A DNA stretch of 64,000 nucleotides from Escherichia coli O127:H6 str. E2348/69 (GCF_000026545.1 NC_011601.1); one strand, 5' to 3'. Counted from the first letter of the stretch, positions 9,202 through 11,948 are shown. The notes: a model not told the origin generated them from the sequence alone. Translations and numbers: made by a program.

Positions 9202-9789
9202 ATGAATACTTTACGTATTGGCTTAGTTTCCATCTCTGATCGCGCATCCAGCGGCGTTTATCAGGATAAAGGCATCCCTGCGTTGGAAGAATGGCTGACA
9301 TCGGCGCTAACCACGCCGTTTGAACTGGAAACCCGCTTAATCCCCGACGAGCAGGCGATCATCGAGCAAACGTTGTGTGAGCTGGTGGATGAAATGAGTT
9401 GCCATCTGGTGCTCACCACGGGCGGAACTGGCCCGGCGCGTCGTGACGTAACGCCCGATGCGACGCTGGCAGTAGCGGACCGCGAGATGCCTGGCTTTGG
9501 TGAACAGATGCGCCAGATCAGCCTGCATTTTGTACCAACTGCGATCCTTTCGCGTCAGGTGGGCGTGATTCGCAAACAGGCGCTGATCCTTAACTTACCC
9601 GGTCAGCCGAAGTCGATTAAAGAGACGCTGGAAGGCGTGAAGGACGCTGCGGGTAACGTTGTGGTGCATGGTATTTTTGCCAGCGTACCGTACTGCATTC
9701 AGTTGCTGGAAGGGCCATACATTGAAACGGCACCGGAAGTGGTTGCAGCATTCAGACCGAAGAGTGCAAGACGCGACGTTAGCGAATAA
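9202..9789 (+). CDS. mog: molybdopterin adenylyltransferase
   Basis: 195-aa ORF MNTLRIGLVSISDRASSGVY. Confidence 0.9.
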   Translation: MNTLRIGLVSISDRASSGVYQDKGIPALEEWLTSALTTPFELETRLIPDEQAIIEQTLCELVDEMSCHLVLTTGGTGPARRDVTPDATLAVADREMPGFGEQMRQISLHFVPTAILSRQVGVIRKQALILNLPGQPKSIKETLEGVKDAAGNVVVHGIFASVPYCIQLLEGPYIETAPEVVAAFRPKSARRDVSE

Positions 9790-9799
9790 AAAAATCCCC

Positions 9800-9807
9800 C
9801 CGAGCGG
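9800..9807. repeat. left copy of target-site duplication flanking IS50-like element
   Basis: ccgagcgg immediately before the element end; identical 8-mer immediately after the other end at 11358..11365. Confidence 0.6.
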
Positions 9808-11357
9808 CTGTCTCTTATACACAAATCCCCACCCGGGGATTTGTGATGTCTGTCAGTCTGCTTTAGGGGGACTCTTTCCATCCGGTAGTTTCCTTCCTCC
9901 CCGGCAGCGATTTTTTGAACTTTTTCCTCACCCGTTGATCTTCTCTTATATTTCATTTTCTTCGGGTCTGTTATGGTACTTTCTGATTGTTATTCATGGG
10001 CTAACGAGCAGTTTGGACATGCCCGTCTCGGTGATCCGCGTCGTACACGACGCCTTGTGTCACTGGCCTCTTCTCTCGCTCAGCATGCAGGTCTTTCTAT
10101 TGTGAAATCATCCCAGTCCACTGCTCAGGTTGAAGGTGCGTACCGCCTGATACGTAACCCGTCTGTGTCCCCGCAAGCCATTGCCGAAGCCGGATTTACC
10201 GCCACTGTAAGGGCATGTGAGGCTCATCCGCTGCTCCTCGCGCTGGAAGACACCACCACCATTAACTTCAGTCACAGTACGGCATCTGATGACCTGGGGA
10301 ATACCACCACTAACCCGAAGACGCGCGGGCTGCTGGCTCACTCTGTCCTGATGTACGCCCCCGACAGCGCCCTGCCAGTCGGTCTTATCGAACAGCAGCG
10401 CTGGAGTCGTGCCACGGACACCTACGGTGTTAAGCACCAGCGAAAAGAACGTCCCTATGAAGAAAAAGAAAGTTACCGCTGGCAGCAGGCTTCGGAGCGC
10501 ATGGCCGAATGGCTGGGGGAGATACAGAAACGGGTAATCACTGTCTGTGACCGGGAAGCGGATATCTGGCATTACCTGCATTATAAAGTCAGCCACGGGC
10601 AGCGCTTCGTGGTGCGTGCAGCACAGAATCGCCGGCTGGAAGAAGCACCCGGCAAGCTCTTCGAACTGCCGGAAGTCCTGGCAACCGCGGGAAGCCACAC
10701 GCTGAATGTGATGCAAAAAGGCGGGCGGGCAGCCCGCCAGGCCCGGATGTTCATCAGTTACAGCGAAGTCAGCATAAAAAATCCCGACAACAGCGGCCAG
10801 GCGCTCCCGCTCACGTATGTCTGTTGCCGGGAGCAGGCAGAGGACGGCGCCTGCTGGCATCTGCTGACGTCAGAAAAAGTGGCGAGTGCCGCCGATGCGC
10901 GACGTATCGTCAGCCATTACGAGCGACGCTGGCTGATAGAGGAATACCACAAGGCGTGGAAAAGTGGTGGTACATGTGTGGAATCGCTGCGAATGCAGAC
11001 CCGGGATAACCTCGAGCGCATGGTGGTTATCAAGGCGTTTATCGCGGTGCGGGTGCTGGGCCTGCGGCAGGGCGGTATCAGTGAAGAAACACAAAATGAC
11101 AGCTGTGAGAAAATACTGACGCCGACAGAGTGGAAACTGCTGTGGGTTAAGCTGGAAGGAAAACCGCTTCCGTCACAGATGCCGACACTGAAATGGGCCT
11201 GTCTGAAACTGGCGAAACTGGGGCGATGGCATGACAGCAAACGCACCGGTCGCCCCGGTTGGGTAGTCATGTGGGATGGCTGGTTCAGACTTCAGGATAT
11301 GGTTGAGGGTTACCTGGTGATGAAGTCTCTTGATCAGGAGATCTGATCAAGAGACAG
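9808..11357 (+). mobile_element. IS50/Tn5-like insertion sequence (IS4 family), apparently complete
   Basis: left terminus ctgtctcttatacacaaat (17/19 to Tn5 OE, 17/19 to ME); right terminus agatctgatcaagagacag is the exact reverse complement of the Tn5 inside end CTGTCTCTTGATCAGATCT; single transposase ORF reads from the OE-like end and stops inside the IE-like end as in IS50; flanked by direct repeat ccgagcgg. Confidence 0.85.
9973..11346 (+). CDS. IS4-family (IS50-group) DDE transposase
   Basis: 457-aa ORF with Tn5 Tnp hallmarks: LGDPRRT near N-terminus, ALEDTT and VCDREADI (catalytic Asp positions), RWLIEEYHKAWKSG (YREK motif with catalytic Glu); overall only moderately similar to canonical Tn5 Tnp as recalled. 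Confidence 0.85.
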   Translation: MVLSDCYSWANEQFGHARLGDPRRTRRLVSLASSLAQHAGLSIVKSSQSTAQVEGAYRLIRNPSVSPQAIAEAGFTATVRACEAHPLLLALEDTTTINFSHSTASDDLGNTTTNPKTRGLLAHSVLMYAPDSALPVGLIEQQRWSRATDTYGVKHQRKERPYEEKESYRWQQASERMAEWLGEIQKRVITVCDREADIWHYLHYKVSHGQRFVVRAAQNRRLEEAPGKLFELPEVLATAGSHTLNVMQKGGRAARQARMFISYSEVSIKNPDNSGQALPLTYVCCREQAEDGACWHLLTSEKVASAADARRIVSHYERRWLIEEYHKAWKSGGTCVESLRMQTRDNLERMVVIKAFIAVRVLGLRQGGISEETQNDSCEKILTPTEWKLLWVKLEGKPLPSQMPTLKWACLKLAKLGRWHDSKRTGRPGWVVMWDGWFRLQDMVEGYLVMKSLDQEI

Positions 11358-11365
11358 CCGAGCGG
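11358..11365. repeat. right copy of target-site duplication flanking IS50-like element
   Basis: ccgagcgg, identical to 9800..9807; the two flanks reconstitute the C6-GAGC-G6 hairpin expected at this site. Confidence 0.6.
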
Positions 11366-11381
11366 GGGGATCTCAAAACAA

Positions 11382-11948
11382 TTAGTGGGATTCACCAATC
11401 GGCAGAACGGTGCGACCAAACTGCTCGTTCAGTACTTCACCCATCGCCAGATAGATTGCGCTGGCACCGCAGATCAGACCAATCCAGCCGGCAAAGTGGA
11501 TGATTGCGGCGTTACCGGCAATGTTACCGATCGCCAGCAGGGCAAACAGCACGGTCAGGCTAAAGAAAACGAATTGCAGAACGCGTGCGCCTTTCAGCGT
11601 GCCGAAGAACATAAACAGCGTAAATACGCCCCACAGACCCAGGTAGGCACCAAGGAACTGTGCATTTGGCGCATCGGTCAGACCCAGTTTCGGCATCAGC
11701 AGAATCGCAACCAGCGTCAGCCAGAAAGAACCGTAAGAGGTGAATGCGGTTAAACCGAAAGTGTTGCCTTTTTTGTACTCCAGCAGACCGGCAAAAATTT
11801 GCGCGATGCCGCCGTAGAAAATGCCCATGGCAAGAATAATACCGTCCAGAGCAAAATAACCCACGTTGTGCAGGTTAAGCAGAATGGTGGTCATGCCGAA
11901 GCCCATCAGGCCCAGCGGTGCCGGATTAGCCAACTTAGTGTTGCCCAT
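11382..11948 (-). CDS. satP: succinate-acetate/proton symporter
   Basis: 188-aa membrane ORF MGNTKLANPAPLGLMGFGMTTILLNLHN (YaaH/GPR1 family). Confidence 0.9.
   Translation of the reverse strand: MGNTKLANPAPLGLMGFGMTTILLNLHNVGYFALDGIILAMGIFYGGIAQIFAGLLEYKKGNTFGLTAFTSYGSFWLTLVAILLMPKLGLTDAPNAQFLGAYLGLWGVFTLFMFFGTLKGARVLQFVFFSLTVLFALLAIGNIAGNAAIIHFAGWIGLICGASAIYLAMGEVLNEQFGRTVLPIGESH

Follow-up and report, generated by a model that had tools for sequence, protein, structure and literature searches.

A recently inserted copy of ISEc13 in the mog/satP terminator hairpin of Escherichia coli E2348/69 and its relation to Tn5

Insertion sequences of the IS4 family share a transposase signature in region C1, Y-(2)-R-(3)-E-(6)-K (De Palmenaer 2008, PMC2266710), and those of the IS50 group have ends of the form CW------Y---CA-A--W-, lengths of 1350–1550 bp and direct repeats of 8–9 bp (Table 1, PMC2266710). 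In the Tn5 transposase (Tnp), the R210/Y319/R322 triad positions a phosphate of the non-transferred strand (PMC2566895). The roles of the conserved Tn5 residues considered below have been described (PMC2566895, PMC2229646), and the positions that we find altered in the relatives of the present element were assigned by Gradman et al. to the binding of target and donor-flank DNA in Tn5 (PMC2229646). One of these relatives is TnY, from Vibrio parahaemolyticus, which with the changes P50K and M53Q loads the Tn5 mosaic end (ME) and performs tagmentation; its insertion bias on human DNA is 'of a similar magnitude' to that of Tn5 (bioRxiv 10.1101/2020.11.20.390971). Insertion at a fixed register within extragenic palindromes is known from IS1397/ISKpn1, from IS110-family elements in REP sequences and from ISRm22, of the IS4 family (PMC1525189).

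We analyzed a stretch of 64,000 nucleotides from E. coli O127:H6 str. E2348/69 (NC_011601.1, GCF_000026545.1), hereafter the window, and put at about 0.93 the probability that positions 9808–11357 (+ strand) are a copy of ISEc13 that is intact and transposed recently; ISEc13 is an autonomous IS4-family insertion sequence of the IS50 (Tn5) group. With its flanks, the element matches the E2348/69 chromosome NZ_LT827011.1, of which the window is the start, at 100% identity and equal coordinates, and 9808–11357 matches the annotated E2348/69 copies of ISEc13 over its full length with 100% nucleotide identity. The exact 457-residue protein is held in INSDC and UniRef as 'transposase of ISEc13', under CAS07558.1 and for three further E2348/69 copies, and RefSeq labels it 'IS4-like element ISEc13 family transposase' (WP_000244363.1); the exact protein and the 100% DNA match to RefSeq-annotated copies thus both point to ISEc13, a name already present in the original E2348/69 genome annotation and at NCBI. 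The original prediction of an unnamed natural member of the Tn5 family therefore held for the family, with ~40% identity to Tn5 Tnp, an intact triad and near-canonical ends, but not for the name: this Tn5-related element is known, named, catalogued and widespread. ISEc13 is unmentioned in the text-form supplements of the IS4 review, and our literature search found no experimental study of its transposition, only mentions in annotation lists.

The complete 1550-bp element is delimited by two terminal repeats, an 8-bp direct repeat and the empty site in K-12. Its transposase gene, tnp (9973–11346, + strand), is a single uninterrupted open reading frame (ORF) without a frameshift, which encodes 457 residues and contains the DDE triad (D93, D193 and E323), as expected of an IS4 element. 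The motifs LGDPRRT, ALEDTT, VCDREADI and RWLIEEYHKAWKSG, singled out in the original prediction, are all present. The product scores 511.6 bits against NCBIfam NF033590 (IS4 family transposase; cut-off, 160) and has the Tn5-type set of Pfam domains, PF14706 (2.8e-19), PF01609 (2.1e-7) and PF02281 (9.7e-5). Residues Y316, R319, E323 and K330, within YERRWLIEEYHKAWK, form the YREK signature.

Both ends agree with the IS50-group form at every specified position. The left terminal repeat, IRL (CTGTCTCTTATACACAAAT, 9808–9826, + strand), matches the Tn5 outside end (OE) at 17 of 19 positions, with mismatches at 4 and 18, and the ME also at 17 of 19, with mismatches at 17 and 18. The right terminal repeat, IRR (CTGTCTCTTGATCAGATCT, 11339–11357, − strand), is identical to the Tn5 inside end (IE) at 19 of 19 positions and contains two GATC (Dam) sites; the stop codon of tnp falls within it, in the register seen in IS50. 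These counts for the OE-like and IE ends are those originally predicted. Each 19-bp terminus is the sole match in the window, where zero would be expected by chance.

Perfect hairpins overlap both ends. The left one (9820–9845, + strand) is an 11-bp stem, CACAAATCCCC/ACCC/GGGGATTTGTG, of −22 kcal/mol that covers IRL positions 13–19. The right one, an inverted repeat at 11325–11355 (+ strand), is a 13-bp stem, GTCTCTTGATCAG/GAGAT/CTGATCAAGAGAC, of −24 kcal/mol; one arm is IRR positions 3–15 and the other, an inverted copy inside the element, codes for the C-terminal KSLDQ of the transposase. A TTTTTTGAAC box lies at 9911–9920 (+ strand); in relatives, it directly follows the left hairpin. By this comparison, the box may be the remnant of a terminator T-run, part of a tnp promoter (with TTGAAC as −35), or both, the −35 assignment being only a guess. 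A consensus scan of 9700–11500, which includes the region upstream of tnp, found no sigma-70 promoter.

The element lies among talB, mog, satP, an msyB-like gene, yaaI and dnaK. The 8-bp sequence CCGAGCGG stands on either side of it as a target-site duplication (left, 9800–9807; right, 11358–11365; both found by repeat search), and occurs once in K-12, whose empty site, AAAAAAATCCCCCCGAGCGGGGGGATC, is the terminator hairpin of mog/satP. A 9-bp duplication of the Tn5 type was considered for this copy and rejected: the 9-mers that adjoin the element differ, with CCCGAGCGG on the left and CCGAGCGGG on the right. Because only CCGAGCGG is repeated, and the K-12 empty site agrees, the duplication is 8 bp here; it is 8 or 9 bp at other ISEc13 copies. 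The loop of the mog/satP terminator was the target of this insertion.

ISEc13 copies from E2348/69, strain CP148541.1, FDAARGOS_144, draft genomes and Escherichia fergusonii plasmids provided a set of distinct flanks, 22 on the left and 17 on the right. In this set of surviving insertions, to which selection against gene disruption could contribute, the base at −12 is C in 38 of 39 half-sites, within a C-rich stretch from −13 to −7. The consensus is CCCY-N8-RGGG, where N8 stands for the duplicated 8 bp and CCCY and RGGG are its left and right flanks. Many of the sites are intergenic terminator hairpins, such as mog/satP, agp/yccJ and AACCCTCTCCGCCCGGAGAGGGTT. In marine relatives, at least 45 distinct sites consist of an A-run and a GC stem, then a loop and the beginning of the descending stem, which puts the insertion at the apex of an intrinsic terminator. 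ISEc13 and its relatives thus apparently insert at the apex or dyad of GC-rich palindromes, many of which are intrinsic terminators; ISEc13 does so almost without exception. In the literature, with ISfinder outside the search, we found no description of palindrome or terminator targeting by ISEc13 or its relatives, and this preference is the only part of our findings that might be new.

The same pattern would arise if harmless intergenic insertions simply survived, with no target choice by the transpososome. Many sites, including mog/satP and agp/yccJ, do lie between convergent genes, and the in vitro bias of TnY on human DNA is only Tn5-like in magnitude, which disfavors a strong readout of plain sequence on linear DNA. 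Yet intergenic selection alone is insufficient to hold the register to within about one base of the dyad, as the near-invariant C at −12 indicates, and at least one site (L012) is apparently inside a coding sequence, where the call of a PF06545 (AllG) gene runs into the end of the element. The strict core motif is also rare, with three occurrences in 62.4 kb of the window (about one per 20 kb), one of them the occupied site, and yet an exact match to it is present in 9 of 14 reconstructed sites. Moreover, the same hairpins were hit independently: at the mog/satP hairpin, strains differ in the orientation of the inserted element (L010 and L018), and at the agp/yccJ hairpin, the duplication is 8 bp in one strain but 9 bp in another (L006 and L016). 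We therefore consider survivorship an unlikely account of the pattern.

The fixed register instead favors choice by a twofold-symmetric transpososome, through sequence or DNA shape. Tentatively, and at less than even odds, we propose that the clade consists of true target-selective transposons whose transpososome chooses the dyad, perhaps by means of a basic insertion near K160/K164 that is described below. If the preference is driven by the enzyme, it would explain why so many copies of an insertion sequence can be tolerated and could guide the engineering of site-biased Tn5-type enzymes; target selectivity of this kind would offer strong site selectivity in a natural Tn5-type enzyme that is plausibly ME-compatible.

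ISEc13 is common in E. coli. Among 5426 complete genomes, 2991 have some match to it and 873, from sources that include people, animals and water, have a copy that covers at least 80% of the element at 97–100% identity, so that intact ISEc13 is present in about one in six. The E2348/69 chromosome has ~29 places that match ISEc13, a count of matches irrespective of their length. Truncated fragments are very common, and one of them (L005) has an internal stop and lies beside IS66 debris. This abundance of fragments and the outcome of the promoter scan would suit a dead or domesticated relic, no longer mobile, with an ORF left intact by chance or kept for another function. We regard this as very improbable for the present copy, in which both ends are perfect, the duplication is clean, the ORF is intact and every catalytic and DNA-tip residue is present. 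The insertion is also private: the mog–IRL junction is found only in the three E2348/69 assemblies among the 5426 genomes. Identical transposases are encoded at several different sites within one genome, and strains differ in which way round the element lies within one and the same hairpin. Because of this combination of an intact copy, a private junction, many copies with identical proteins and a hairpin used in both orientations, we interpret the insertion as recent and ISEc13 as an evidently active element.

To place the protein relative to Tn5, we rebuilt a 476-residue IS50R Tnp reference from the IS50L of plasmid pO86A1, a 1534-bp copy that adjoins aph(3')-IIa and has an OE left tip, an IE right tip and a single ochre codon, which we reverted. 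In a global alignment, the ISEc13 and IS50R transposases are identical at 187 of 441 aligned positions (42%; 38% over all columns) with 60% positives, and tblastn against plasmid Tn5 copies gives 38.8–38.9% protein identity. A phmmer search against Tn5 structures (4DM0 and 1MUH) matches residues 6–453 with E = 7e-83. The originally predicted identity of well under half is thus borne out, and the value lies far from the roughly 90% at which the protein would simply be IS50 Tnp. In 100-nt bins, the interior DNA has only 45–67% identity to IS50, and the termini therefore stand out against the rest of the element. That the element is IS50 or Tn5 itself, a laboratory Tn5-derived insertion or an assembly artifact from tagmentation adapters has almost no probability, because, for all that the right end is 19/19 IE, the left end is 17/19 OE and ME, and ME-like adapter read-through contaminates some public assemblies, the 38–42% protein identity and the diverged interior DNA rule it out, and the element has its own ORF, a length of 1550 bp, a target duplication and 873 complete genomes in which it recurs.

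The alignment pairs Tn5 D97, D188 and E326 with ISEc13 D93, D193 and E323, so the catalytic D/D/E residues are all retained on careful comparison. Also conserved in ISEc13 (Tn5 numbering) are the R210/Y319/R322 triad, W298, R26, R27, R30, R62, K160, R189, K330, K333, N348 and K439, and E58 is likewise kept. In the Tn5 structure, R26, R27, R30 and R62 are N-terminal contacts. As originally noted, no methionine lines up with the start of the Tn5 inhibitor (Inh): Tn5 M56 aligns with Q52, encoded by CAG, which is followed by V53, encoded by GTT. Because neither codon can start translation, an Inh that begins at the Tn5 position cannot be made; the nearest in-frame ATG is M117. We infer from these codons that Inh-type regulation may be absent.

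We scanned one genome per bacterial species with the left 19-mer, which identified at least 120 stretches. About 14 matches at contig ends of unrelated metagenome-assembled genomes were Nextera adapter read-through, not insertion sequences, and were excluded. The others belong to IS50-group elements, with hosts that include, among the matches listed, Vibrio, Photobacterium, Neiella, Aliagarivorans, Psychrosphaera, Alishewanella, Pseudoalteromonas, Colwellia, Budvicia, Pluralibacter and Brenneria. Their transposases, again among the matches listed, are 41–54% identical to that of ISEc13 and 35–46% identical to that of Tn5, and their right ends read CTGTCTCTTGATCAC(AAGT/ATCT/AACT). Elements of Vibrio, Photobacterium, Neiella and Budvicia have the same left 19-mer as ISEc13, without a mismatch. 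Because the tips are nearly invariant and the proteins only 41–54% identical, near-Tn5 ends with a diverged transposase are a property of the whole clade, typical of a large set of IS50-group elements and not special to ISEc13. Relative to Tn5, the clade has E344Q, lacks K40/Y41 and carries M or A in place of K212, Q in place of H213 and S in place of R104, together with a 9-residue basic insertion immediately before K160/K164, at about residues 148–157 in ISEc13.

Membership in this clade bears on the use of Tn5 ends. The ends of ISEc13 differ from the ME at positions where natural Tn5 OE or IE also differ, and residues R26, R27, R30, E58, R62, W298 and N348 are kept. Because TnY, of the same clade, loads the ME once it carries its two changes, cross-compatibility of ISEc13 with Tn5 mosaic ends is plausible by analogy. 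The TnY numbering (P50K and M53Q) fits the V. owensii plasmid copy L003, and the ISEc13 equivalents are T50 and V53. The use of Tn5 mosaic ends by natural Tn5 relatives is an idea already exploited in TnY and is not novel. Because its ends are IE-identical and OE/ME-like and intact copies occur in about a sixth of complete genomes, including enteropathogenic E2348/69, resident ISEc13 transposase and Tn5 tools (mini-Tn5, EZ-Tn5 and TraDIS libraries) could conceivably mobilize one another.

The end hairpins, too, recur in the clade. At the left end, 10 of 13 relatives have a 12–13-bp hairpin that starts at position 16, with a T-run and GAAC after it; its stems covary among these relatives, which indicates a terminator-like structure just inside the end. 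ISEc13 has kept an 11-bp perfect stem at this end and has ~65 extra bases before the TTTTTTGAAC box. Of the 13 relatives, 11 also have the right-end hairpin, in which position 15 shows a compensatory G/C change; IS50 lacks this hairpin. It is a matter of speculation whether these hairpins block read-through from the interrupted host terminator, stabilize the 3′ end of the tnp mRNA or act as decoy binding sites.

Since all the residues tied to Tn5 chemistry are kept, we infer that ISEc13 would move by the cut-and-paste pathway of Tn5. Its 457-residue transposase has a DDE RNase-H-like core that carries the YREK signature, preceded by a domain that binds the ends and followed by a C-terminal domain for dimerization. 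By analogy, two protomers would bring the two ends, OE-like on the left and IE-identical on the right, together in a synapse; the transferred strands would be nicked, hairpins would form and be resolved to excise the element, and the 3′-OH ends would be joined to target DNA with a stagger of usually 8 bp. The right end has two GATC sites, as does the IE, which makes it reasonable to suppose that use of this end would be under Dam control, as in IS50.

In architecture, ISEc13 resembles IS50/Tn5 (1MUH, 1MUS and 4DM0), with which it has in common the three domains, the DDE triad, YREK, R210/Y319/R322 and W298, as well as a single ORF, an 8–9-bp duplication and a stop codon inside an IE-type end. 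It differs from Tn5 in having Q in place of E344, A in place of K212, Q in place of H213 (residues 217 and 218 of ISEc13) and S in place of R104, in the 9-residue basic insertion just before K160/K164 and in the lack of a start codon where Inh begins in Tn5. Most ISEc13 duplications are 8 bp long, whereas Tn5 makes 9 bp, and a further difference is the pair of perfect hairpins that overlap both ends. Target preference is strongly palindromic in ISEc13, whereas Tn5 has only a weak consensus (PMC2229646). Unlike IS50 in Tn5, ISEc13 lies outside any composite resistance transposon.

Also close are TnY/'ViPar' of V. parahaemolyticus and other Vibrio elements, including the V. owensii plasmid copy L003, which share with ISEc13 a 19/19 left end, an IE-like right end, the 9-residue insertion, E344Q, hairpins at both ends and insertion into terminator hairpins. 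Their transposases are ~50% identical to that of ISEc13 at the amino acid level. The Vibrio right end, CTGTCTCTTGATCACAAGT, matches the IE at 16 of 19 positions, in contrast to 19 of 19 in ISEc13, and the L003 copy has a 9-bp duplication. The Vibrio left hairpin has a T-run, whereas that of ISEc13 has none adjacent, and residue 53, a possible internal start, is Met in Vibrio and Val in ISEc13. Vibrio targets are A-run/GC-stem terminators in general, as opposed to CCCY-N8-RGGG in ISEc13.

The closest system of all is ISEc13 as first annotated in E. coli O127:H6 E2348/69, which is the same element, here as a strain-specific mog/satP insertion. In its targets, ISEc13 resembles IS1397/ISKpn1, the IS110-family elements and ISRm22, which likewise insert at a fixed register within palindromes. 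Those elements belong to other transposase families or subgroups and have REP/BIME targets, whereas ISEc13 enters unrelated hairpins that share a C-run and a G-run or the shape of a terminator, and not a single repeat family.

ISEc13 insertions are centered on GC-rich palindromes of the form CCCY-[8 bp]-RGGG, as seen across the gathered copies of the element (loci L006–L023 and L155–L160); the target-site junctions of the copy in the window lie at 9796–9811 and 11354–11369. Many of these palindromic targets are terminators between genes. The base at position −12, in the host flank outside the element end, is C in 38 of 39 half-sites, and the same hairpins have received independent insertions, which differ either in orientation or in the length of the duplication (8 bp versus 9 bp).

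The left 19-mer of ISEc13 is shared by a large clade of IS50-group elements from marine Gammaproteobacteria and some Enterobacterales, including Neiella (L099–L123), Aliagarivorans (L085–L091) and Vibrio fluminensis (L062–L066). Among the matches listed (L035–L154), the clade transposases are only 41–54% identical to that of ISEc13, and the elements nearly always occupy the apex of intrinsic terminators with an A-run and a GC stem. Other matches to the 19-mer, located at contig ends in unrelated metagenome-assembled and draft genomes (L041, L051, L053, L057, L058, L060, L061, L073, L094, L098, L132, L136, L140 and L152), were rejected as insertion sequences because the 19-mer is followed by CCGAGCCCACGAGAC or GACGCTGCCGACGA, which is Nextera adapter. 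These matches are adapter read-through with base errors and represent contamination in public assemblies.

A 9-residue basic insertion in the GVKHQRKERP region of the transposase (residues about 148–157; window about 10414–10443) is common to 14 of 14 clade members but missing from Tn5 transposase. It lies immediately N-terminal to the equivalents of Tn5 K160 and K164, to which Gradman et al. (PMC2229646) ascribe the binding of flanking target and donor DNA. This insertion is a candidate cause of the changed target choice.

In CP148541.1, target duplications are exchanged between the ISEc13 copies at 2.305 Mb (L020) and 2.365 Mb (L021): CTCCCCAA lies to the left of one copy and to the right of the other, as does CGAACCAG. 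This swap is the signature expected of a ~60 kb inversion, which would have arisen by recombination between the two copies. A 1,564-bp variant of ISEc13 with 98% protein identity (L024–L031, from E. fergusonii and E. coli plasmids and metagenome contigs) has the left end CTGTCTCTTATACACAAGT, matching Tn5 OE at 18 of 19 positions, and a 9-bp duplication with one mismatch (GGATAAGTA versus GGATAAGCA). Fragments far outnumber intact copies: among 5,426 complete E. coli genomes, 2,991 have any match and 873 have one covering at least 80% of the element. One such fragment (L005; CFSAN061761, 4.343 Mb) lies beside IS66 and integrase debris; it still has the left end along with 290 bp of tnp and carries an internal stop. 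A different relic, 59–60% identical, resides on Shigella virulence plasmids (tblastn hits H58–H60).

Perfect hairpins overlap both terminal repeats of ISEc13, at 9820–9845 (left) and 11325–11355 (right). The left hairpin has a homologous counterpart in relatives, a terminator-like hairpin with a T-run; in the right one, an internal inverted copy, which encodes the C-terminal KSLDQ, pairs with the terminal repeat. Compensatory changes in relatives preserve both hairpins, whereas IS50 has neither.
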